From UHGV virus genome UHGV-0299427: a stretch of 15,727 nt of DNA, one strand, 5' to 3'. The stretch comes from a virus. The notes beneath the pieces were generated by a model, which was given only the letters and a program-made list of their open reading frames with translations, made no database searches and was not told the DNA's origin. The translations under genes and the position numbers were made by a program. Position 1 is the first letter of the stretch, and each line of letters starts with the position of its first letter. Positions 1-9,738 of this stretch are shown one piece after another.

Positions 1-126
1 ATTAATAAACCACATCGCATACCGATACACTCTATTACTAACCAATCATAGCCCACATCATAAAATCGAGATGAGGAGTACAATACCTTTAACAAGAAGG
101 TGTCATAACGATAATATGTCGTGCAA
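1..126. repeat. Left arm of a perfect inverted repeat pairing with 537-662; truncated by the window start
   Basis: Positions 1-126 are the exact reverse complement of 537-662, checked base by base. Identity ends at 127/536. The outer end coincides with position 1, so the true length is unknown. Confidence 0.9.
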
Positions 127-257
127 TTCATCAAAAAAAAGATCTATATCAAAGAGATAGAACTCTTATCAGTGCTTCAGACATCGGCATTCGAGGCAGC
201 AGAAAAACAGTAAATCTGACGAATTTGCCTTTTCCCAAGATGTTGTCAGATTAAAAA

Positions 258-405
258 GATAGATTAGCGCAGGTACCTGTTGGTGGATTGCAGGAGGAAA
301 AATGAAGTCGAGTGGAAAAATCCCAGAAAAATTTTTGTTTAACAGAGGTCCTGGCTCACTATGCGAAATACGGAGGAGCTGCAGAAGAATTCTGCTTCAT
401 CCTTA
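258..405 (+). pseudogene. Degenerate, internally deleted copy of the hok-like locus (leader motif plus 33-codon ORF MKSSGKIPEKFLFNRGPGSLCEIRRSCRRILLHP, no transmembrane segment)
   Basis: By-eye alignment to the minus-strand hok locus: motif GATAGATTAGCGCA vs GATAGATTACGCGC (13/14), following leader 21/32 and 24/30 matches, and tcactatgcgaaatacggaggagct vs tcgctgtgtgaaatacggatgagct (21/25). About 150 bp spanning the hok SD, start and hydrophobic N-terminus are missing. Strong SD AGGAGG before ATG 302. Confidence 0.35.
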
Positions 406-495
406 GAGTTTAAACAGCACGTGCACTACCATTGTTTCTGCATATCGCCACACCATCGCCACTCAACCGCCATTGCACAAAATACAAATACGAAA

Positions 496-515
496 AAACC
501 ACCCGAAGGTGGTTT
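496..515 (-). terminator. Hairpin (AAACCACC cgaa GGTGGTTT) followed on the minus strand by a T-rich run; candidate rho-independent terminator for a leftward transcript
   Basis: Perfect 8-bp stem with 4-nt loop. The minus-strand downstream sequence is TTTTTCGTATTTG; on the plus strand it is not T-rich. Confidence 0.4.
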
Positions 516-536
516 CACGACACTGCTTATTGCTTT

Positions 537-662
537 TTGCACGACATATTATCGTTATGACACCTTCTTGTTAAAGGTATTGTACTCCTCATCTCGATTT
601 TATGATGTGGGCTATGATTGGTTAGTAATAGAGTGTATCGGTATGCGATGTGGTTTATTAAT
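537..662. repeat. Right arm of the perfect inverted repeat; contains the putative ATG (643) and first 20 nt of the downstream secreted-protein gene
   Basis: Exact reverse complement of 1-126. ATGCGATGTGGTTTATTAAT at 643-662 lies inside the arm. Confidence 0.9.
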
Positions 663-924
663 GGCAATCTGCCTTTGTTTAGTATCTTTTAGCGGATATG
701 CAGCAACAGGAAAGTCTGATGCTCAGATCAAAAAAGAAATAATTAAAGAATCCATTGAATCTTATCCAGGCAATTGTGCGTGTCCTTATAATCATGCAAG
801 GAATGGTAGTAGATGTGGTGGACGCAGTGCATATAGCCGTAATGGAGGGTATGACGTGGTATGTTATGAGGGTGATGTTACCGATGAAATGATCCGGCAA
901 TGGAAGCAGGAGAATGCTGAGTAA
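643..924 (+). CDS. Small secreted Cys-containing protein of unknown function (93 aa; signal peptide MRCGLLMAICLCLVSFSGYA, mature part with CxC and two further Cys)
   Basis: C-terminal third of track ORF 361..924. Positive n-region, hydrophobic core and a GYA-A cleavage-like site begin at Met-643; the upstream 94 codons run through the repeat-flanked segment and look non-coding. SD is weak. Followed by a terminator at 992-1034. Confidence 0.45.
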   Translation: MRCGLLMAICLCLVSFSGYAATGKSDAQIKKEIIKESIESYPGNCACPYNHARNGSRCGGRSAYSRNGGYDVVCYEGDVTDEMIRQWKQENAE

Positions 925-991
925 TCTCTTTTAACAGGTTTGTTGTGCGAGCATTATGTGCCGTTAACGGTACACTAGCTAGTGATAGTTC

Positions 992-1034
992 CAAAAAGAA
1001 AACCCGCAGTTCTTACGCTGCGGGTTTGTTGTTC
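992..1034. terminator. Bidirectional rho-independent terminator (stem CCCGCAG / CTGCGGG, A-run 5' and T-run 3')
   Basis: AAAAAGAAAA-CCCGCAG-ttcttacg-CTGCGGG-TTTGTTGTT. It sits between the convergent secreted-protein gene (+) and hok-like gene (-). Confidence 0.55.
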
Positions 1035-1113
1035 ATGTCTGTGAGATAGGGTGCCTTATCGACCTTACCCTGGCAACCGATTGACGGGGGATAGCTCCCC
1101 CGTCGCGGTTTCC

Positions 1114-1254
1114 TTACTGCTTACACTGTAAGAACGCCGCAAACTCCGCTCCCCAGAAGCTCATCCGTATTTCACACAGCGAACCGTGCAGCATCCAGAT
1201 GATGAGGATTGCCGTCACGCAGAACGTGATGGCCATAAGCGATTTTTGCGACAT
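1114..1254 (-). CDS. Hok/Gef-family type I toxin (46 aa: MSQKSLMAITFCVTAILIIWMLHGSLCEIRMSFWGAEFAAFLQCKQ)
   Basis: Manual minus-strand translation; the ORF is below the track's size cutoff. N-terminal transmembrane helix followed by the SLCEIR-x6-E-x-AAF pattern recalled for Hok family members (nearest to HokA-like). SD AAGGAG lies 8 nt upstream. A GC hairpin (1083-1104) follows the stop, then the terminator at 992-1034. Confidence 0.6.
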   Translation of the reverse strand: MSQKSLMAITFCVTAILIIWMLHGSLCEIRMSFWGAEFAAFLQCKQ

Positions 1255-1490
1255 AGCGCTTGCTCCTTTTTCAGGGAGGCGCTAACCTATCACTTGCTAA
1301 GGTTAGATGGTCAGGGCCTCGGTTAAACAGAAATGTTTTCCGGGGCCTTTCCACATCTGGCCTTCGGGTATTCCCTCCGACCATCAGCCGAAAGGCACCC
1401 GCGCGTAATCTATCGCTTTTTTGTTACTCCGGCAATTCTGCCTGTTAATTCTGAGATAAAGGCAAACTCATCTGATTGTTTCCCCTGTGT
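1255..1490 (-). promoter_or_regulatory. Leader region of the hok-like mRNA (presumed mok/sok-type regulatory region), with motif GATAG(A/G)TTA(C/G)GCGC twice and a short leader ORF
   Basis: Motif at 1278-1291 and 1401-1414 (minus-strand sense). Layout GATAG...CGC...AAGGAG...ATG resembles the recalled R1 hok leader. Homology to the left-hand copy extends to about 1480-1490. No antisense RNA was mapped. Confidence 0.35.
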
Positions 1491-1705
1491 GAAGCTGGCA
1501 GCTCATGCCACGGGATACCTTCTGAAGAGTGAACGCCGGAGGCGTGTTTTGATGTGAATTTATGGAAAGCTTCCAGTGTTGAGAAGCATACGCCGCATTC
1601 CAGATTGTTACACTGGTAATACTTTTGCCGCACGGTGTTTGAATCATTTTCCGGACGACTGGTGCGGATACGGGCAGATGCGCCACAAAGCGGACAACGG
1701 AACAT
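1445..1705 (-). CDS. ogr: Ogr/Delta-family zinc-finger late transcription activator (86 aa as read; likely core about 72 aa plus a C-terminal extension)
   Basis: MFRCPLCGASARIRTSR...YQCNNLEC matches the P2 Ogr CPLC...C-x4-C zinc-finger pattern. SD AGGGAGG upstream. Sits immediately downstream of D, as in P2. Confidence 0.85.
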   Translation of the reverse strand: MFRCPLCGASARIRTSRPENDSNTVRQKYYQCNNLECGVCFSTLEAFHKFTSKHASGVHSSEGIPWHELPASHRGNNQMSLPLSQN

Positions 1706-1745
1706 AGCGACCTCCCTTAACGTGGTGCTGCCTATTCTAAGTTGC

Positions 1746-2855
1746 TCACTCTGTTTCCGCTATCCATTCCGGGATTTTTGCCTCAAGCTCAAGCTGCGTG
1801 GTAAAACCGCTGTTATCAATGGTGTGCTCGGCTTTTGCAATGATCCAGTCCTTATTATCAATCTCGCTTTTAAATCCTGTTACCGTGCCATGCATTTCGG
1901 GGTAGAGTTCTGCACGTCCACGCGCCAGCGTGATGGAGAATGATGCGGCTCCGCGTTGTAGTTGCTGCCACTTTGCCGCCGCTGCGCGTCTTGCTGCCTG
2001 CTCGTTCTGATAAGTCTTGCGTAACACAAACACATTGCCTTCCGCGCCTTCCATATAATCACCTTCACGGCTGCTGCTTTTCTCCTTTTTGGGTTTTGGC
2101 GGTTTACGGCGTTTCACGCTGACTTTTTTCTTTTTCCCGTAATTAAGATCAAGCCAGTAGGCGCGTACCCCCGTATACGCCTCGCGGTCAGCAATGCGGA
2201 ACTGATGGCGATCGCCGCTGCTGCGTGTAATGGCGAACGAGGGCAACGGCTGGCCCTGTGCGTTCACGCCACCACCTGGCATGATGAATAACAGATTGCC
2301 GCTTTTTACCGTGGTGATTGCGCCCAGCATTTCCGCCATGCGCGTAAGGAAGGACATGTCGCTTTCTTCGGTCTGGTCGGCGTGGTCGATTTCGATATCC
2401 ATCAGCATTTCGCTGATTTGCGGTTTCAGACCATACCGATGAGCGATGGCGGATACCACACGCTCAACGGTCACATCATGCCAGGACACCTCACGTTTAA
2501 CGTTAAATTCATCCCGAAAATCTGCGCTTCTGGCTGAAACAGTCAGCCTGTCCGGCGGTCCTTCGTGAGCGATTTCATCAACAATGTAAGTGCCTTTTTC
2601 TGTCAGCGGTTCTCCTTTCCAGCCAATGAGAACCGTCAGGCGCGCGCCCCGTGGCGGTAGCTGCAACTGACCATCCGCATCATCCAGCGTGATGGTGAGC
2701 TGGTCCGCGTCAAATCCCCGGTTGTCGGTCAGTGACAGGCTCATCAGGCGCTCTGCCACGCCTGACAGCGTTTTACCCTCCGCGAGAATATCAAAATCCG
2801 GCATTTTTACGGGGTCTGTGCCCTGACTGAGCAATTGCATGGTGGTGTCGGTCAT
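1746..2855 (-). CDS. D: Late control / tail protein D (gpD-like), 369 aa
   Basis: Track ORF 1746..2987 trimmed to ATG 2855, which is preceded by SD GGGAGGGAG. Length and position next to ogr fit P2 gpD. Contains a Lys-rich linker. Confidence 0.85.
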   Translation of the reverse strand: MTDTTMQLLSQGTDPVKMPDFDILAEGKTLSGVAERLMSLSLTDNRGFDADQLTITLDDADGQLQLPPRGARLTVLIGWKGEPLTEKGTYIVDEIAHEGPPDRLTVSARSADFRDEFNVKREVSWHDVTVERVVSAIAHRYGLKPQISEMLMDIEIDHADQTEESDMSFLTRMAEMLGAITTVKSGNLLFIMPGGGVNAQGQPLPSFAITRSSGDRHQFRIADREAYTGVRAYWLDLNYGKKKKVSVKRRKPPKPKKEKSSSREGDYMEGAEGNVFVLRKTYQNEQAARRAAAAKWQQLQRGAASFSITLARGRAELYPEMHGTVTGFKSEIDNKDWIIAKAEHTIDNSGFTTQLELEAKIPEWIAETE

Positions 2856-3012
2856 CTGCTCCCTCCCTGTGCGGCATGGTCGCATGTGCGTGCGGAGGGG
2901 GTTACTGCTTTTTGTTGTCGCCGTGGCGGGAGAACGGCGCAGGGGTGAGATTACGCGCGTGGTGGGTGATGATTGTTGCCGAATCATTTAACGGATACAA
3001 GGGGCTGAAGCT
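2856..3012. promoter_or_regulatory. Divergent intergenic region between D (-) and FI (+); expected site of the FI late promoter and any promoter for D
   Basis: 157 bp between divergent start codons. Only imperfect Ogr-type dyads were seen by eye (for example TGT-N12-AGA at 2916-2933); no perfect TGT-N12-ACA. Confidence 0.3.
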
Positions 3013-4197
3013 ATGAGTGAAACTCGTTTTCATGGTGCCCGTGTTACGGAAAGTACCGACCTGGTAACAGCGATTAACGATGTTGATTCCAGCGTTATCG
3101 GTATCGTGGCAACGGCGGATGATGCGGACGCGAAGCTGTTCCCGCTGAACAAGCCCACACTGCTGACCCGCGTCAATGACGTGCTGGGAAAATGCGGGAC
3201 AACGGGGACGCTTTATCGTGCGCTTAAGGCCATCGCAGACCAGGTGAGCACAAAGGTGATCGTCGTTCGCGTGGCTGAACACAAAGAAGAAAACGGAAAG
3301 ACGCAGGATCAACTGGTTATCGGTGGTTCTGAATCTGACGGCAGCTATACGGGGATGTATGCGCTGCTTGTTGCAGAGCAGGATGAAAGCATCGGATACC
3401 GTCCGCGTATTCTGGCCGCGCCGGAGCTGGACACGGAGGCGGTGACAAAATCCCTGTGCGTGATTGCGGGTAAACTGCGCGCGTTTGTGTATGCCTCATG
3501 TCATGGCTGTAACACGATGGCAGAGGCAATTACCTACCGCCAGAAATTCAACGAACGTGAGGTGATGCTCTTATGGCCGGACTTCATCGCCTACAACCCG
3601 AAAAGTGGCAAAAACGAAACGTTCCCCGCGCCTGCTTATGCGTGCGGCCTTCGTGCGTACATTGACCATGAGCAGGGCTGGCACAAATCACTGTCCAACG
3701 TTCCGGTTAAAAATGTGCTGGGGATGTCCCGGCATGTGTTCTGGTCGTTGCAGGCCGAAGACAGCGATGCCAACAGCCTTAACAACAAAGAAATCACGAC
3801 CATTATTCGTCGTAACGGGTTCCGCTTCTGGGGCAACCGCACACCGGAAACGAACGCCTACATCTTTGAGGTGTATACCCGAACCGCACAGGTGCTGGCT
3901 GATTCAATTGCGGAAGCGCAGTTTGAAACCATCGACAGTCCACTGACGCCTGCGAACGTGAAGGATGTTATCAGTGCCATCAGGGCAAAACTGGATTCAC
4001 TGGTTACTGCCGGGAAACTGATTGGCGCGGAGTGCTGGTATGACGTGGTGGATAACAGCACCACGGGTTTACGTCAGGGACGTGTGCGTATTCGCTACAA
4101 ATATACGCCAGTTCCCCCGCTGGAAGACATGGAGCTTTACCAGTCGTTTACTGATGAATTCTTTGGTCCCGCATTTGCGGTGCTGGGAGGTGCCTGA
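3013..4197 (+). CDS. FI: Contractile tail sheath protein (gpFI-like), 394 aa
   Basis: Length and motifs (…ADDADAKLFPLNKP…, …FRFWGNRT…) match P2 FI. SD AAGGGG. The stop overlaps the FII start (TGATG). Confidence 0.9.
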   Translation: MSETRFHGARVTESTDLVTAINDVDSSVIGIVATADDADAKLFPLNKPTLLTRVNDVLGKCGTTGTLYRALKAIADQVSTKVIVVRVAEHKEENGKTQDQLVIGGSESDGSYTGMYALLVAEQDESIGYRPRILAAPELDTEAVTKSLCVIAGKLRAFVYASCHGCNTMAEAITYRQKFNEREVMLLWPDFIAYNPKSGKNETFPAPAYACGLRAYIDHEQGWHKSLSNVPVKNVLGMSRHVFWSLQAEDSDANSLNNKEITTIIRRNGFRFWGNRTPETNAYIFEVYTRTAQVLADSIAEAQFETIDSPLTPANVKDVISAIRAKLDSLVTAGKLIGAECWYDVVDNSTTGLRQGRVRIRYKYTPVPPLEDMELYQSFTDEFFGPAFAVLGGA

Positions 4198-4709
4198 TGG
4201 CTGTACCAAAACATCTTCGCTTTTTTACGCTGTTTGTGGATGGTGAAAACGAAGTGGGTAAGGTGACGTCCGTCACTCTGCCTAAACTGACGCGCAAAAC
4301 CGACAGCTACCGGGGTGGTGGCATGATGGGTGCGGTAAGTATTGATCTCGGTCTGGACGACTCCGCGCTTGATGCGAGCTTTGTCATGGGGGGCGCAGTT
4401 CGTGAGCTGTTCCTTAAGTATGGCGGCACGATTGACGGCACGCTGCTGCGTTTTGCGGGTGAATACTACACCGATGCAGAAAGCGACCTGTATGAAGTCG
4501 AAATGCGCGGACGTGTGACGGAAATTGATATGGGGGAAGCCAAACAGGGCGAAGCCACATCACACACTTACGCCATTAAAAACACCTACTACAAGCTGAG
4601 TGTTAACGATCGCCCGTTGTGGGAGATTGACCTGCTGAACTTCATTTACCGGAAGGACGGCAAGGACATTGTGCCTGACCGTATCCGTTCCGCGCTTGGG
4701 CTTGGCTGA
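4197..4709 (+). CDS. FII: Tail tube protein (gpFII-like), 170 aa
   Basis: Follows the sheath gene with start/stop overlap; size and sequence are typical of P2 FII. Confidence 0.9.
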   Translation: MAVPKHLRFFTLFVDGENEVGKVTSVTLPKLTRKTDSYRGGGMMGAVSIDLGLDDSALDASFVMGGAVRELFLKYGGTIDGTLLRFAGEYYTDAESDLYEVEMRGRVTEIDMGEAKQGEATSHTYAIKNTYYKLSVNDRPLWEIDLLNFIYRKDGKDIVPDRIRSALGLG

Positions 4710-4763
4710 TAAGTAATATGCAGGCGGCGCAGTGCGTCGCCTCTGACTGAAAGGAGTTTCCTG

Positions 4764-5129
4764 ATGAAAGAGACGAAAAACATCGATACCGAAAACACGG
4801 TAGTTACTGACACTGTGAAAGAAACCAGTGAGCGTGGCGTAAAACTTACCCAACCAATTGAGCGAGGCGGCGAAAAAATCACGTATGTGGAGATCACCGG
4901 AGCTATTGAGCAGGCTGGATCTCTGCGAGATTTGTCGTTGTCTGATGTGCTGAATCTGAAAGCGGAATCCATGTTTACGCTGCTGTCACGCGTGACATCA
5001 CCGCGACTGGATGAAGTGACGATCAAAAAAATGGCATCCCGTGACTTTATTCAGTTATGTGTGGTTGCCGTAAATTTTTTGAGCGGTGCGGACTCTGGCG
5101 GGAAGAACGAACAGGCGACGGAAGCCTGA
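4764..5129 (+). CDS. E: Tail assembly chaperone gpE (frame-0 product)
   Basis: Sits between the tube and tape-measure genes. SD AGGAG 8 nt upstream. Contains the slippery heptamer near its 3' end. Confidence 0.8.
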   Translation: MKETKNIDTENTVVTDTVKETSERGVKLTQPIERGGEKITYVEITGAIEQAGSLRDLSLSDVLNLKAESMFTLLSRVTSPRLDEVTIKKMASRDFIQLCVVAVNFLSGADSGGKNEQATEA

Positions 5130-5293
5130 TCACGGTTGTGTGCTTTGAGCACATAGAAGACTTTGTGGCAGATATTGCCGTTATTTTTAACTGGTCGCCC
5201 GCTGAAATCTTCATGATGACGCCCGGCGAAGTGGTTAGCTGGCGTGAGCGGGCGGCACTTCGCAGCGGGAATGCAGACAATGAAGACTCTTGA
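5075..5293 (+). CDS. E': E' extension: -1 frame continuation giving the E+E' fusion by programmed frameshift at T TTT TTG (5075-5081)
   Basis: Track ORF 5057..5293 is in the -1 frame relative to E. Slippery site TTTTTTG is identical to the P2 E/E' site. Its stop overlaps the T start. Confidence 0.7.
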   Translation, partial: FFERCGLWREERTGDGSLITVVCFEHIEDFVADIAVIFNWSPAEIFMMTPGEVVSWRERAALRSGNADNEDS

Positions 5294-8192
5294 TATCCGG
5301 GTCGCTTTCAGCGCCGTTGACAGGCTGACCCGGCCTGCCGAAAACGCCCGCCGCCTGATGGGGCAGTTTGGTGACTCCATCCAGCGAACGCAGGGGGCGA
5401 TCAAAAATCTCGAGCGTCAGGCGCGTTCATTTGAGCGCGCCCGTGACGCTGTCAGTAAAGCGGATGCTGGCATCGTGAAAGCACGACGCCAGCTTAACGC
5501 CCTTAATCAGTTACAACGCACGGGTACAGTGCTCAGCGAAAAACAACAAAAGCTGATGCAGCAGTTAAGCACCCGGCTTGAACGCCTGAATGAATCGCGC
5601 ACACGGGAAATTCAGAAAATGCGGGAGCTTGGCGGAGAGCTGAAACGCCACGGCATTTCCCTGACAGGCAGCGATAACACCATCCAGCAGGCCATCAGAC
5701 GCACCGAACAGTACAACAATCAGCTTGAACGCGAACGGCAGGCGCTTGCGCGTGTAACGCGTGCGCGTGAGCGGTATTCGCGCGCGCAGGAAACAGCAGG
5801 AAAACTGAAAACAGGTGGTGCGCTGGCAATTGGTGCGGCAGCGGCTGGCGGCTATGCTGCCGGGCGTTTTTTGCAGCCTGCGATCGGGTTCGGGAAAGAG
5901 ATGTCCCGCGTTCAGGCACTGACGCGAATCGACAAAAACAGCCTGCAGTTTAAGGCGCTGCGTGAGCAGGCGTTAAAACTTGGCTCTGAAACGCAGTTCA
6001 CCGCAGGCGATGCCGCCAGTGGGCAGGCATTTCTTGCAATGGCAGGCTTCACTCCGCAGGCCATTCAGGCTGCGCTTCCCGGCGTACTGAGCATGGCAAC
6101 GGCTGGCGGTATGGATCTCGGCGAGACGGCAGATATTGGCTCAAATATCCTGACGCAGTTCGGCCTTTCTGCTGACCAGATGGACCGGGTCGGAGACACA
6201 CTCACCGCAGCGTTTACCCGTACCAACACTGACCTTCGCGCACTGGGCGAAACCATGAAATATGCCGGTCCGGTGGCGGGTAAGCTGGGGATATCGCTGG
6301 AGCAGGCCGCAGCGATGGCGGGCGTGCTGGCGAATATGGGCATCAGAGGGAGTGATGCCGGGACGGCAATGCGTGCCAGCCTGGCTCGTCTGGCATCACC
6401 GCCAAAGGCGGCGGCAGAAGCTCTGAAAGAGCTGGGCGTGTCCGTCTCGGATGCCGGGGGCAAAATGCGCCCGATGGAAGATCTGCTGGCTGACCTTTAT
6501 AAAGCTACCCGCAAATACGGGGAAGTTGACCGGGTATCCTTCTTTAAGGACATCGCCGGGGAAGAGGCTTTCACATCGTTTATGGCACTCGTTGATGCGG
6601 CGGGTGACGGTTCCTTACCCAAACTGAGAAAAGAACTTGAGGGCGCACGCGGTGAGGCTGAACGCACGGCAAAGGTTATGGCCAACAACCTTGATGGCGA
6701 TCTGAAATCACTCGGCAGTGCATGGGAAGGGTTGCGCATCCGCATTGCAGATCTGATTGACGGTCCGCTGCGTTCTGTCACGCAGTGGCTCACGCGGGTG
6801 GTCTCAAAGGTGACGGCGCTGGCGCAGGCCCATCCGGTACTGACGCGCCAGTTACTGATAGCGGGAGGCGCACTGCTGGCGACAACAGCAACGGTTGGTT
6901 CGTTGTCTCTGGTTATTGGGGTGCTTCACGGGAAGCTGGCTACGTTACGTCTCGGTTTTTCTCTCCTGACAGGATCAATGAATGTCGTCAGGGTGCTGCC
7001 AGCACTATGGGGAATGGTAACAGGTTCCATCTCGTTGCTGGGTGGCGCTATCGGGGCGCTGTTCAGTCCGGTCGGATTGATTGTTGCCGCGTTTGTGGCT
7101 GCGGCAGTTCTCATCTGGAAATACTGGGAACCCATCAAGGCGTTTTATATCGGGGTGTTCAACGGGATTATGGAACGACTGGCTCCGTTGCGCGAAACCT
7201 TTGAACGGTTCGGTCCTGTTTTTGATGTCGTGCGCGATGGGATTATTCAGGTCTTTAACTGGTTTAAATCGCTGCTGTCACCGATGGAGTCCAGCAAGGA
7301 AACGCTGGATAAATGTACCAGTGCTGGCGAGATATTCGGTAACGTTCTTGGCGGTGCGTTACAGCTTGTTCTGACACCTGCAAAAATGCTACTGGATACG
7401 CTGGCGTGGATACTTGAAAAACTTGGCGTCCTTCCGGATGAAGCGGAAAGGGCGCGCAAGAAAATTGAAGACGCACAGCGTGCGGCCATTCTTCAGGACA
7501 AGGTTGCTCTGTTTCAGGGAGACATTGCGAAAATCAATCCGCCGAAGTCTGCGGAAAATGGCAATGGCACCGGAGGCGATAAACCCAAAGACAACAAACC
7601 GCTCACAGACAGCAATACCGGTACGCTACGCAGACTCAGCAAAATTGCTGATAACACAGGTAAGCTGGTTGATGAGACGAAAAAACGCATTGGCCCCGGT
7701 GATATTGTCTTTAAGAACCTGCCCCGCGCACTTGCCGTTCGTGGGGAGTGGCAGGAGCGGAAGATTGCGCAGGTCAGTAAGCCTGCCTCCGCAATTAATA
7801 TCACACCCGTGGTCCCTGCTCCGCTGCCTCTGGCGCTGGTCCCTGGTGGGGAGTGGCAGGAGCGGAAGATTGCGCAGGTCAGTAAGCCTGCCCCCGCAAT
7901 TAATACCACACCCGTGGTCCCGGCTCCGCTGCCTCCGGCGCTGGTCCCTGTTGTTGCGGCCAGCTCCCGCCCGGTGGCGGAGGCCATACGATCGCCAGTG
8001 GCATCAGTTCCTGTAACTTCCCGTAACCGGGAGCCTGTTGCCTCCGGATTTGGTGGTGAAATTCATGTTCATCTGCATAACGTTGTTACGCAGAATCCCC
8101 GCGAACTGGCGAAACTGGTCGGTGAAATGGTCAGGGCAGAAATGGAACGGCGCGCCCGTGCCGGGCGTGGCAGTTTTTACGATAAAGATTGA
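5280..8192 (+). CDS. T: Tail tape measure protein (gpT-like), about 970 aa; start codon uncertain (GTG 5244, ATG 5271 or ATG 5280)
   Basis: Long Ala/Gly/Leu-rich protein with coiled-coil-like N-terminus and hydrophobic segments, between E/E' and U. Contains a 105-bp in-frame tandem duplication. Confidence 0.9.
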   Translation: MKTLDIRVAFSAVDRLTRPAENARRLMGQFGDSIQRTQGAIKNLERQARSFERARDAVSKADAGIVKARRQLNALNQLQRTGTVLSEKQQKLMQQLSTRLERLNESRTREIQKMRELGGELKRHGISLTGSDNTIQQAIRRTEQYNNQLERERQALARVTRARERYSRAQETAGKLKTGGALAIGAAAAGGYAAGRFLQPAIGFGKEMSRVQALTRIDKNSLQFKALREQALKLGSETQFTAGDAASGQAFLAMAGFTPQAIQAALPGVLSMATAGGMDLGETADIGSNILTQFGLSADQMDRVGDTLTAAFTRTNTDLRALGETMKYAGPVAGKLGISLEQAAAMAGVLANMGIRGSDAGTAMRASLARLASPPKAAAEALKELGVSVSDAGGKMRPMEDLLADLYKATRKYGEVDRVSFFKDIAGEEAFTSFMALVDAAGDGSLPKLRKELEGARGEAERTAKVMANNLDGDLKSLGSAWEGLRIRIADLIDGPLRSVTQWLTRVVSKVTALAQAHPVLTRQLLIAGGALLATTATVGSLSLVIGVLHGKLATLRLGFSLLTGSMNVVRVLPALWGMVTGSISLLGGAIGALFSPVGLIVAAFVAAAVLIWKYWEPIKAFYIGVFNGIMERLAPLRETFERFGPVFDVVRDGIIQVFNWFKSLLSPMESSKETLDKCTSAGEIFGNVLGGALQLVLTPAKMLLDTLAWILEKLGVLPDEAERARKKIEDAQRAAILQDKVALFQGDIAKINPPKSAENGNGTGGDKPKDNKPLTDSNTGTLRRLSKIADNTGKLVDETKKRIGPGDIVFKNLPRALAVRGEWQERKIAQVSKPASAINITPVVPAPLPLALVPGGEWQERKIAQVSKPAPAINTTPVVPAPLPPALVPVVAASSRPVAEAIRSPVASVPVTSRNREPVASGFGGEIHVHLHNVVTQNPRELAKLVGEMVRAEMERRARAGRGSFYDKD
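7741..7950 (+). repeat. Two tandem copies of a 105-bp (35-codon) unit within the tape measure gene
   Basis: 7741-7845 and 7846-7950 differ at about 4 positions. Protein repeat is VRGEWQERKIAQVSKPA(S/P)AIN(I/T)TPVVPAPLP(L/P)ALVP. Confidence 0.85.
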
Positions 8193-8204
8193 GGAGTCAT
8201 GGCC

Positions 8205-8693
8205 ATGATGATGATCTACGGCATGTTTGTTTTTGAGCTGCGCACGTTGCCGCATCAGCAGTTACAGCAAAGCAAAAGCTGGCGGCATGTGAAAAATGAA
8301 CGCGTTAACCGTTCAGCAAGCTGGCAGTATATCGGTGCAGGTGATGATCGCATCGTGCTTTCAGGCGTGCTTTATCCTGAAATTACAGGTGGCGAAGTGT
8401 CGCTTTCGTTGCTGACCACGCAGGCATATACAGGACGCCCCTGGCCTCTGATTGATGGTGTCGGGCAGATTTACGGCATGTATGTCCTGACCGAAACGAA
8501 TACGACCCGTTCCGAGTTTGATCGCTACGGTAAGGCGAAAAAGATAGAATTTTCACTGACCCTTGAACGCTGTGATGAGGATTTGCGGGAGCGCCTGCAA
8601 TCCTCATCGTTCAGTGATATGCTGTCCGGCTTCAAAGATAAGGTCACATCATCCCTTAACAGCGCGGCCAGCTCCGTTAAAGGGCTGTTTTGA
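8205..8693 (+). CDS. U: Tail protein gpU-like (about 162 aa); start at ATG 8205 preferred over 8199
   Basis: Follows T with SD GAGGAG; size and position fit P2 U. ATG 8199 is only 2 nt from the SD, 8205 is 8 nt. Confidence 0.85.
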   Translation: MMMIYGMFVFELRTLPHQQLQQSKSWRHVKNERVNRSASWQYIGAGDDRIVLSGVLYPEITGGEVSLSLLTTQAYTGRPWPLIDGVGQIYGMYVLTETNTTRSEFDRYGKAKKIEFSLTLERCDEDLRERLQSSSFSDMLSGFKDKVTSSLNSAASSVKGLF

Positions 8694-8700
8694 TTAACGC

Positions 8701-8730
8701 AAAACCGCTAATGGTCAGATTAGCGGTTTT
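8701..8730. terminator. Perfect 12-bp-stem hairpin (AAAACCGCTAAT ggtcag ATTAGCGGTTTT) between convergent U and invertase genes; bidirectional terminator candidate
   Basis: Seen directly. T-run follows on the plus strand. The invertase stop codon (8720-8722) lies inside the stem. Confidence 0.6.
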
Positions 8731-9319
8731 CATTTTCCTGAGTCTGCCTGGTTGTTGCTTCAGCCTGTATATCGCCTACAGGGTGATAACGATAAATCGT
8801 CGATATGCCGATGTCGTAAATGATCGCCAGTTGTTTCCTGTCATGACCGTTTTTAATCAGCCTTGCTATTTGCTCGTGTTGTTCTTTTGTCAACTTCGGG
8901 CGACGTCCGCCAATGCGTCCTTGTGCGCGTGCTGCTGCCAGCCCGGCCAGTGTACGTTCTACAATTAATTCACGTTCCATTTCGGCTAAAGCCCCCATGA
9001 CGTGAAAAAAGAAACGCCCCATGGGTGTTGACGTGTCAATGCTGTCCGTCAGACTACGGAAATTAACACCTTTTTCCCGCAATTCCTCAATAAGCGTGAT
9101 CAGGTGTTTCATACTTCTGCCCAGTCTGTCCAGCTTCCAGACAACCAGCGTATCTCCTTCTGATAGCGTTCTGAGCAGTTTTTTCAATCCCGGTCTGGTT
9201 GATTTCGTTCCGCTGATTTTATCTTCAAAAATCAGTTCACATCCTGCGCAGTTCAGTGCATTGCGTTGTAAATCCGTGTTCTGGTCGTTTGTTGACACAC
9301 GAATATAGCCAATTTGCAT
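8720..9319 (-). CDS. Serine-recombinase DNA invertase (Hin/Gin/Cin/Pin, Din family), 199 aa
   Basis: MQIGYIRVSTNDQNTDLQ… with catalytic Ser motif and C-terminal HTH (…AIIYDIGISTIYRY…). Track ORF trimmed to ATG 9319 with SD AAGAGGA. Adjacent to the invertible tail fibre segment. Confidence 0.9.
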   Translation of the reverse strand: MQIGYIRVSTNDQNTDLQRNALNCAGCELIFEDKISGTKSTRPGLKKLLRTLSEGDTLVVWKLDRLGRSMKHLITLIEELREKGVNFRSLTDSIDTSTPMGRFFFHVMGALAEMERELIVERTLAGLAAARAQGRIGGRRPKLTKEQHEQIARLIKNGHDRKQLAIIYDIGISTIYRYHPVGDIQAEATTRQTQENENR

Positions 9320-9373
9320 AAAAAACATCCTCTTTGTTTCGTGAAAAATACAGAGTTGGTATAGGTAGGGATA

Positions 9374-9399
9374 AAAACGAAAACGTTGGTTTGGGAGAA
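9374..9399. other. Left crossover site of the invertible segment (reverse complement TTCTCCCAAACC AA CGTTTTCGTTTT)
   Basis: Shares the 15-nt core TTGGTTTGGGAGAAG (9386-9400) in inverted orientation with 11209-11223. Resembles recalled gix/cix/hix half-site architecture (AAACC-NN-GGTTT). Confidence 0.6.
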
Positions 9400-9738
9400 G
9401 CGGCAAAAAGGAATGTGGGGACAGGGACGAATCAGATACCTGATATGGGTAGCTTCACGCTTTCTGTTTCAGGTACTGGATATCAAAAATTACCATCTGG
9501 TTTTATTCTTCAGTGGGGCTCAATCGGCGCACCAAGCATTGCACAGGATGTGGTAACCCATTTTCCGATTGCATTTCCAAACAGATGTCTGCGTGTTTTG
9601 GTCTCACAAGACTACACACCAGATAGCGGGGCTGTTGGTTATATTGCCTGTGCAGGTTTTAGTTCCGACCCGGTTAAATTTATATCCAGAGCCAGTACTC
9701 CTGGCCTCGGCGCTTCATTTTTAGCGTTAGGCTGTTAA
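9386..9738 (+). CDS. Alternative tail fibre C-terminal segment (Hv'), silent in this orientation; no start codon of its own
   Basis: Reading frame is continuous with the shared core (…VGLGEAAK…), which matches the …LGLGEGS… junction in H. Would fuse to the H constant region after inversion. Track ORF 9334..9738 begins at an incidental ATG. Confidence 0.6.

Follow-up and report, generated by a model that had tools for sequence, protein, structure and literature searches.

The 15,727-nt stretch of viral DNA analysed here (the window) carries, directly beyond ogr, a short minus-strand reading frame that an earlier note had interpreted as an unannotated type I toxin locus of the Hok family. Two questions are raised by this locus: whether it represents a complete hok/sok-type toxin-antitoxin module, and how an antisense RNA could control the toxin in a leader without a conserved mok frame. 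Homologues for comparison were taken from P2-like phages and prophages, Stx phages (3' of lom), an IncI1 plasmid, chromosomal sites near ykgM and serS, E. albertii, Salmonella and Citrobacter, and the alignment used below comprises 16 distinct mRNAs from homologous loci. A scan of genome contigs returned 12 loci, including 7 real relatives; it added the divergent members L022 and L023 and little on distribution.

The hok gene and its prophage context

The predicted ORF is present where the earlier note had placed it, starts with ATG and encodes a peptide of 46 aa (MSQKSLMAITFCVTAILIIWMLHGSLCEIRMSFWGAEFAAFLQCKQ), preceded by the Shine-Dalgarno (SD) sequence that the note had listed:

1114-1254, minus strand: hok coding sequence, 46 codons and a stop; one transmembrane helix predicted for about residues 5-22; C27-E28 and C44 conserved
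1268-1263, minus strand: hok SD AAGGAG, 8 nt 5' of the ATG; kept as AGGAG in 15 of the 16 loci

The peptide matches the Pfam family HOK_GEF (PF01848) with 30.2 bits (gathering cutoff 22, E 3.5e-7), residues 7-44 being aligned with profile positions 5-42 of 42; a search against Hok models was the check that the earlier note had named. The match to PHROG 251 reaches 80.3 bits (E 1.6e-22). Both protein features claimed from the sequence are there: hydropathy peaks at 2.56 over residues 5-22, consistent with one predicted transmembrane helix, and the SLCEIR-x6-E-x-AAF motif is found by reading the peptide. Residues M1, C12, W20, S25, C27, E28, L42, C44 and K45 are invariant in 10 members of the subfamily, and L26 is kept in most of them. 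The family logo in the preprint of Escalera-Maurer et al. (2026; 10.1101/2025.08.07.668861) has a conserved Cys-Glu core, C31-E32. The peptide has the shape of this family, belonging to the ~50-aa class (46 aa) and carrying an N-terminal transmembrane helix and a Cys-Glu core. The dN/dS of hok against its homologues is 0.12-0.40, and the 46-aa Hok-family peptide is under purifying selection. A chance ORF is ruled out by the profile matches and the dN/dS values.

Some sources name this protein HokA. The HokA equivalog of NCBIfam (NF007290) is its best model, but the score of 33.3 bits is far under the equivalog cutoff of 89, so the source name "protein HokA" is unjustified; judged by these models, the peptide is a member of the Hok family, not HokA.

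The description of the locus as unannotated does not hold for public records, since RefSeq has a "Hok/Gef family protein" (WP_000078910.1) at exactly the same place. The exact 46-aa peptide occurs on 714 contigs, again named "Hok/Gef family protein". The locus is already annotated and catalogued, and its product is a known family member. The identification therefore adds little: the gene is called by annotation pipelines, the subfamily has been catalogued and the enrichment of hok in prophages is known.

Window positions 537-3000 are 100% identical to E. coli strain TW10598, for which RefSeq gives the order tRNA-Gly/Cys/Leu, hypothetical protein, Hok/Gef (WP_000078910.1), ogr/Delta-like zinc-finger protein and tail gene D. 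The ogr product passes the Pfam Ogr_Delta model. Homology to K-12 stops at window position 490, and positions 490-536 are the 3'ETS-leuZ terminator region, which places the host junction there. On sequence grounds, the window represents a P2-like prophage of E. coli, of the P88/Xuanwuvirus type, located next to tRNA leuZ.

The isolated phages Chuche, P88, Xuanwuvirus P884B11, PhiR44_2 and Citrobacter phage Shae_phiSM share the ogr-hok segment at 95-98% identity, and in Chuche it is followed by com, methyltransferase and integrase genes. Its conservation in isolated phages, together with the presence of these genes beyond it in Chuche, indicates that hok, placed between ogr and the attachment site, is genuine cargo of the phage. 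The proposed placement of the locus directly downstream of ogr and near the prophage end is thereby supported. A search of the hok-to-att segment (127-990) against the phage collection gave only a 47-nt match, to host sequence on the leuZ side, and the cargo between hok and att is therefore absent from deposited phage genomes. At a coverage of at least 80% of the 731-bp query, 1179 of 5426 complete E. coli genomes (22%) contain the ogr-hok pair, with annotation of both ogr and Hok/Gef in every one among the matches listed. The subfamily, defined by a length of 46 aa and a FLQCKQ end, is found in P2-like phages, Stx phages 3' of lom, IncI1 plasmids and chromosomal sites.

Transcripts of the locus

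The promoters of hok and of the putative antisense RNA were both placed by homology. A simple promoter scan of positions 900-1500 reported none, because both are weak matches to the consensus. Hexamers and spacing of the hok promoter are kept in 12 homologous loci, with 8 of 12 consensus positions matched. The following elements are predicted for the hok transcript:

1407-1435, minus strand: hok promoter; -35 TTGCCG (1435-1430), 17-nt spacer, -10 TAGATT (1412-1407); predicted start at about G1402-G1400
994-1402, minus strand: predicted full-length hok mRNA, ~405 nt; ends deduced from promoter and terminator and from where the Rfam model starts
1386-1400, minus strand: tac element GGGUGCCUUUCGGCU at the mRNA 5' end; predicted partners fbi (full-length RNA) and ucb (truncated RNA)
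1341-1354, minus strand: ucb-like box GGAAAGGCCCCG, alternative partner of tac
1309-1320, minus strand: GAGG element GAGGCCCUGACC, counterpart of the mok SD region of R1 and hokB without the start codon; pairs with the dcb/anti-SD box in the predicted open form
1275-1287, minus strand: dcb/anti-SD box GGUUAGCGCCUCC, predicted to alternate between the GAGG element and the hok SD as partners
1083-1104, minus strand: post-stop hairpin GACGGGGGA-GCUA-UCCCCCGUC, 9 bp (1083-1091/1096-1104); -19.7 kcal/mol, z -4.65
1049-1064, minus strand: fbi element GGUCGAUAAGGCACCC, complementary to tac and paired with 1386-1400 in the minimum-energy fold
1000-1027, minus strand: intrinsic terminator of the hok mRNA; -16.3 kcal/mol, z -4.57; U tract to ~994

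The 409-nt RNA from 1402 to 994 folds with -176.5 kcal/mol against -135.4 +/- 5.7 kcal/mol for shuffled sequences (z -7.25), its 5' end folding back on its 3' end, in line with the structured leader described from the sequence. In the minimum-energy fold, tac and fbi form a 15-bp helix. All 16 loci have the GGGTGCC of tac (columns 4-10) unchanged, and the remainder is nearly invariant; the fbi side shifts its register among the loci, retaining complementarity to tac.

The two 3' elements of the earlier note, a strong terminator and a 9-bp GC hairpin, were likewise confirmed, the terminator stem being followed by UUUUCUUUU. Across the 16 loci the post-stop hairpin is paired in 99.3% of cells, and four of its nine pairs show compensatory double changes, which makes it the best-supported helix of the RNA. 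It is probably not part of termination and would instead cap the 3' end of the processed, active mRNA.

The Rfam model RF01794 ("sok") matches positions 1241-1400 on the minus strand, the hok strand, with 42.7 bits (E 7e-7), under its gathering score of 59. In K-12 this model matches hokC and hokB on the hok strand, with 118 and 110 bits, whereas the annotated sokC and sokB lie on the opposite strand. What the model describes is therefore the hok leader, and its orientation rules out that the match in the window is the antisense RNA itself. Model positions 44-102 correspond to sokC and map to ~1300-1356 in the window, where an antisense transcript and its promoter are predicted:

1260-1288, plus strand: predicted Sok promoter; -35 TTGCTC (1260-1265), 17-nt spacer, -10 TAACCT (1283-1288)
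~1296-1357, plus strand: predicted Sok RNA, ~60 nt, start near G1296; 18-nt 5' tail GCUAAGGUUAGAUGGUC..., stem-loop 1313-1322/1340-1349, U-rich tail

The promoter has the layout found upstream of annotated sokB (TTGCCG-17-TAAGAT) and is kept in the homologues, with TTGACT as the -35 hexamer in Stx phages; its spacer contains the complement of the hok SD. The predicted Sok begins with GCUAAGGUU..., has UUUCC after the stem and folds as a 5' tail plus stem-loop (z -3.2 to -5.2). Annotated SokB reads GCUAGGUU...GGCCUCGGUUGAUAGAAAUAUCGGUCGGGGCCUUCGUCUUU, and its stem is nearly the same. The candidate is homologous to sokB and sokC in sequence and layout, with an Rfam score below the gathering value and a weak promoter.

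Protein profiles, the Rfam hok-leader model, the RNA architecture in 16 loci and public annotation all bear out the earlier assignment to a Hok-family type I locus. The locus is very probably a type I toxin-antitoxin module of the hok/sok type that is still intact and that a P88/Xuanwuvirus-type prophage carries, as accessory cargo, between its ogr gene and its attachment site.

A locus of this kind could also be a decaying, silent relic, with an intact-looking ORF that is unexpressed and has no effect, like several chromosomal hok loci of K-12. Pedersen and Gerdes reportedly found in 1999 that chromosomal hok loci are often inactivated. A second hok copy, clearly dead, lies ~700 bp away in the same window (220-470), 8 nt are deleted from the coding sequence of the Stx-phage homologue EH2011, and the weak consensus matches of both promoters would fit such decay. 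The dN/dS values speak against it, however, as do the conservation of the promoters, SD, tac, fbi, Sok stem and 3' hairpin, some with compensatory changes, and the retention of the locus in free-living phages isolated as virions and in more than a fifth of complete E. coli genomes. Toxicity data on a near-identical peptide point in the same direction. The peptide 72_1621 (45 of 46 residues identical, M7T being the only change) was cloned as LRP137 by Escalera-Maurer et al. (2026), and 42 of 45 Hok constructs were toxic; the preprint text names 19_179, 60_1482 and 69_1540 as exceptions, and 72_1621 is not among these non-toxic constructs. The text of the preprint thus implies that 72_1621, a variant of the window peptide at residue 7, is toxic in E. 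coli. Taken with this, a silent relic is very improbable.

Folding states of the hok mRNA and the mok question

The closed structure compared across the alignment consisted of the tac/fbi helix, the Sok-target hairpin, a long-range helix joining the Sok-tail target to the 3' UTR, the anti-SD/SD hairpin and the 3' hairpin. In the 16 loci, 88.6% of cells pair in this structure, against 36-45% when the partners are slid, and 15 pairs have changed on both sides, against 1-6 in the slid controls. Predicted helix 1 (tac/fbi) is paired in 92.4% of cells. For the dcb/anti-SD box, a local hairpin (GCGCCUCC/GGAG..GCGC, -13 kcal/mol) is predicted, and helices 5 and 6 are paired in 95-98% of cells. The RNAalifold consensus gives an open structure, in which tac pairs with the ucb-like box and GAGGCCCUAAC with GGUUAGCGCCUC, at 98.5-99.4% of cells paired. 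The tac/ucb helix (columns 3-17 with 50-63, 98.5%) is also used in the minimum-energy fold of the truncated RNA; the GAGG/dcb helix comprises columns 87-99 with 122-133 (99.4%). Both of these helices are invariant and therefore provide no covariation evidence. Because the 16 loci are related to one another, the agreement of their folds does not amount to independent evidence.

Truncation of the RNA behind the 3' hairpin is predicted to switch tac from fbi to ucb and to raise the probability that the Sok-tail target is unpaired from 0.23 to 0.90, the target then lying in a 14-nt loop. Single-sequence folding in this respect reproduces the logic of R1. For the window, the predicted cost of opening the hok ribosome-binding site (RBS, -20 to +13) amounts to 16.2 kcal/mol with the full-length RNA, 12.5 with the truncated RNA and 17.8 with the truncated RNA whose Sok site is occupied; the renewed rise is predicted to occur because the anti-SD hairpin re-forms when the stretch covered by Sok is unavailable. 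The corresponding means over the 16 loci are 16.8, 11.8 and 17.9 kcal/mol, with a drop upon truncation in all 16 loci and a renewed rise with Sok in 15 of them.

In textbook accounts, mok is the element through which Sok is thought to act. Across the 16 loci, no conserved start or frame of mok was found. The position of the mokB ATG, as given by alignment with the hokB leader, is ATC-TAA in the window and ATC, GTC, CTT, ACA or ATA among the 16 loci, with stops immediately after. A 37-codon ORF (1271-1384, minus strand), which starts inside tac and stops 4 nt before the hok SD, was rejected as a mok substitute: its ATG is ACG or absent in 4 of the 16 loci, and its stop shifts with indels.

The locus could still be a canonical mok-dependent hok/sok, in which a leader frame with a non-standard start or of very short length was missed and Sok blocks it as in R1. 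Such an arrangement would be consistent with the retention, in 15 of the 16 loci, of the GAGG element, which is the mok SD in R1 and hokB, and with the location of ATC-TAA at the very position of the mokB start. An ATG at mRNA nt 48, with GAAGG before it, is present in 14 of the 16 loci, and its frames cross the hok start in pKPC_P2 and in E. albertii L020. In addition, none of the predicted states frees the hok start codon from base pairing, and such pairing is why R1 needs mok. This reading is nevertheless unlikely. The mok-start position is variable and closed by immediate stops, and most loci contain no start codon, even with NTG and ATH starts included, in the frame open across the hok ATG. 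The frames from the ATG at nt 48 have lengths of 8 to 79 codons, stop at unrelated places and extend as far as the hok SD in only 2 of the 16 loci; with neither length nor frame conserved, this ATG was rejected as a mok start. Both GAGG and this ATG are situated inside conserved RNA helices, which accounts for their conservation without a coding role.

Control of hok is likeliest to be direct. The complementarity to Sok ends 27 nt upstream of the hok SD, and direct occlusion of the SD by Sok is therefore not possible; as suggested by the folding models, Sok would sequester the GAGG element, and the anti-SD box thus freed would re-close the hok SD. It can be tentatively proposed that the 46-aa FLQCKQ subfamily lacks mok and uses GAGG as an anti-anti-SD in a direct three-state RNA switch, as opposed to translational coupling, a proposal that as a whole is possible rather than probable. 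Following 3' processing, GAGG would bind the anti-SD box and thereby open up the hok RBS, until Sok occupies GAGG. In every one of the predicted states, the hok start region is paired with the 3' portion of the coding sequence, and initiation without mok is therefore not fully explained by folding. If the proposal is true, this widespread subfamily would be a convenient natural case for studying control of a Hok mRNA without translational coupling.

By analogy with R1 and from the folding models, the control of hok could proceed as follows. The full-length mRNA, closed by tac/fbi, would be poorly translatable, with the Sok target hidden by pairing with the 3' UTR. Slow trimming of the 3' end to the hairpin at 1083-1104 would allow tac to pair with ucb, exposing the Sok target in the 14-nt loop and loosening the hok RBS. 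Short-lived Sok would then bind the processed hok mRNA, and RNase III would destroy the duplex. Once synthesis of Sok stops, which might result from loss of the element, shut-off of transcription by an infecting phage or prophage induction, Hok would be made, insert into the inner membrane and kill or arrest the cell.

Relation to known hok systems and possible roles

The paradigm of such modules is hok/sok of plasmid R1, established by the Gerdes laboratory (reviewed in PMC9841398 and PMC4147584). The window locus resembles it in its small membrane toxin with a conserved L-C-E core and, as predicted, in a long structured mRNA with tac/fbi fold-back, alternative tac/ucb and SD/dcb pairings and a protective 3' hairpin. 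The predicted Sok would likewise resemble that of R1 as a cis-antisense RNA in which a single-stranded 5' tail precedes a terminator stem and whose promoter abuts the hok SD. Unlike the R1 peptide, which has 52 aa and ends with AYESGK, the window peptide has 46 aa and the C-terminal sequence FLQCKQ; the window locus is phage-borne and has no conserved mok frame, whereas R1 hok/sok is plasmid-borne. The window hok SD is situated within the spacer of the predicted Sok promoter, a position ~6-8 nt closer than in hokB or R1.

The hokB/sokB and hokC/sokC loci of K-12 are matched by RF01794 in the same orientation, and the predicted Sok is strikingly similar to SokB in its 5' end and stem. The K-12 loci differ in their much higher scores with this model (110-118 against 42.7 bits), in having annotated mokB and mokC, and in their peptides, whose identity to the window peptide is low.

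Escalera-Maurer et al. (2026) catalogued 1264 distinct Hok peptides, clustered at 60% identity, and reported hok in 9.3% of Escherichia phages. Their abundant cluster 72 represents the same subfamily as the window peptide, with nothing of substance different at the protein level: 72_1621 is identical to Hok of phage Chuche, 72_1589 is the Stx-phage version, and all have 46 aa ending with FLQCKQ. According to the authors, Mok, Sok and the ends and structure of the mRNA are outside their analysis, and the P2-like context is not addressed in the text of the preprint.

For a P2-like phage, the candidate functions of a hok/sok module are stabilisation, exclusion of other phages and, as in the case of hokW-sokW, assistance in lysis. 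The most probable role is selfish stabilisation of the prophage region, although this is a guess; abortive infection and lysis help are plausible, if equally conjectural, as additional effects. Defence against phages is reported for R1 hok/sok, T4 being one example. This role, as cited in PMC8621323 and by Escalera-Maurer et al. (2026), would favour a different selected function of the window locus, namely anti-phage abortive infection or faster lysis at induction, and not prophage stabilisation. The four-fold enrichment of hok in prophages reported in the preprint is consistent with such a function, and P2-like phages are known carriers of defence cargo. On the other hand, hok is reported not to be enriched beside defence systems, and the described defence hotspot of P2-like phages adjoins cos, not the interval between ogr and att where hok resides; the papers on this hotspot mention neither ogr nor hok.

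Faster lysis has its precedent in hokW-sokW of the Stx2 prophage Sp5, which brings on growth arrest sooner after mitomycin C and doubles the release of phage (PMC8621323). It is likewise a prophage-borne hok/sok and the only one with a tested role in the phage life cycle. However, Sp5 is a lambdoid phage, and HokW is a 51-aa HokC/HokD-like peptide (MKQQKAM...VDYESEK) assigned to cluster 35 of the preprint, while the window peptide belongs to cluster 72. The hokW-sokW pair thus represents a different Hok subfamily, and its role as a lysis helper is not simply transferable to the window locus. All considered, anti-phage defence or lysis as the selected function is somewhat unlikely, and stabilisation of the prophage region is preferred.

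The PHROG that contains the window peptide carries the label "MokW-like host killing". Orthology with hokW of Sp5, which this annotation suggests, was ruled out, HokW being a different peptide. In Stx phages such as 933W, the subfamily of the window forms a separate locus downstream of lom, which is unannotated in AF125520.

Host junction and fold-back at the window start

Compared with E. coli TW10598, a strain 100% identical to window 537-3000, the window is in forward orientation from 537 on, whereas window 1-536 corresponds, in reverse complement, to the 536 nt ending at the site that matches window 662; the window therefore starts with a fold-back. Window 537-662 is a perfect inverted repeat of 1-126 (100% arm identity), and the fold-back comprises 126 duplicated nucleotides and 410 inverted nucleotides adjoining the tRNA gene leuZ. 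Because the arms are completely identical and the window opens with them, the structure (1-662) is more suggestive of an assembly or chimera artefact than of a biological feature. Host sequence is found in this region:

490-536, minus strand: glyW-cysT-leuZ operon, its 3'ETS-leuZ small RNA and terminator

Its location on the minus strand results from the fold-back. Homology to K-12 ends at window 490, which, judged by this boundary, is the prophage/host junction.

An ORF between hok and the attachment site, and a second hok copy

Two further features were noted:

643-924, plus strand: 93-aa ORF between hok and the attachment site, matching PHROG 27544
220-470, plus strand: second hok locus, dead, recognized by alignment with the ogr-hok segment

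The product of the 93-aa ORF begins MRCGLLMAICLCLVSFSGYAATGK and is Cys-rich, and its N-terminus resembles a signal peptide. The best-matching PHROG family is 27544, of unknown function, with an E-value of 7e-58, while searches of Pfam and NCBIfam returned no family, and it is annotated as "hypothetical protein" WP_001303543.1. The ORF is absent from deposited phage genomes. In Chuche, an isolated phage with the same ogr-hok segment, com and a methyltransferase gene occupy this position, which indicates that ogr-hok-att is a variable cargo slot.

The dead hok copy aligns to the final ogr codons, the hok promoter and the leader up to GAGGUCCU. Beyond that point 127 nt are deleted, with loss of the promoter of Sok, the predicted antisense RNA, together with the SD and codons 1-23; past the deletion, the alignment resumes at hok codon 24 (GSLCEIR...) and decays. 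This copy appears to be what is left of a former ogr-hok prophage end that occupied the same attachment site.

The hok subfamily in other loci and its start-codon helix

An intact copy of the same 46-aa Hok subfamily is located directly downstream of lom in Stx phages (loci L005, L004, L013, and L014). In phage 933W it is present without annotation in the record:

L005 370-510 (AF125520): hok copy of the 46-aa subfamily in phage 933W

This locus is distinct from the studied one, hokW, and the Stx phages thus probably hold two unrelated hok loci. Elsewhere, tandem loci with two Hok/Gef genes at most ~500 bp apart were observed in STEC1012 near serS (L015) and on an E. albertii plasmid (L008). 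The scan of genome contigs yielded three near-identical enterobacterial hok loci (L017, L018, and L021) in assemblies that bear the names Planococcaceae MAG, Vagococcus sp., and Xanthomonas pisi; the likeliest explanation is contamination with Enterobacteriaceae contigs.

A conserved long-range helix is predicted in the aligned hok mRNAs (alignment A2, n = 16):

A2 columns 157-174 with 263-280; window about 1254-1238 with 1150-1136, minus strand: long-range helix at the hok start

In this model, the start codon and first codons are base-paired to the 3' portion of the coding sequence, and the helix is kept in all predicted RNA states. Three sequences carry double changes at one of its pairs (columns 172/265).

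Layout of the tail genes

The tail operon of P2 is single and rightward. In the window, strands differ from this layout over 1746-9700: ogr and gene D are on the minus strand, and the ORFs occupying the tail sheath, tube, tape-measure and U gene positions (3013-8693) lie on the plus strand. Chuche shares this layout, so the split-strand arrangement is normal for this phage group.
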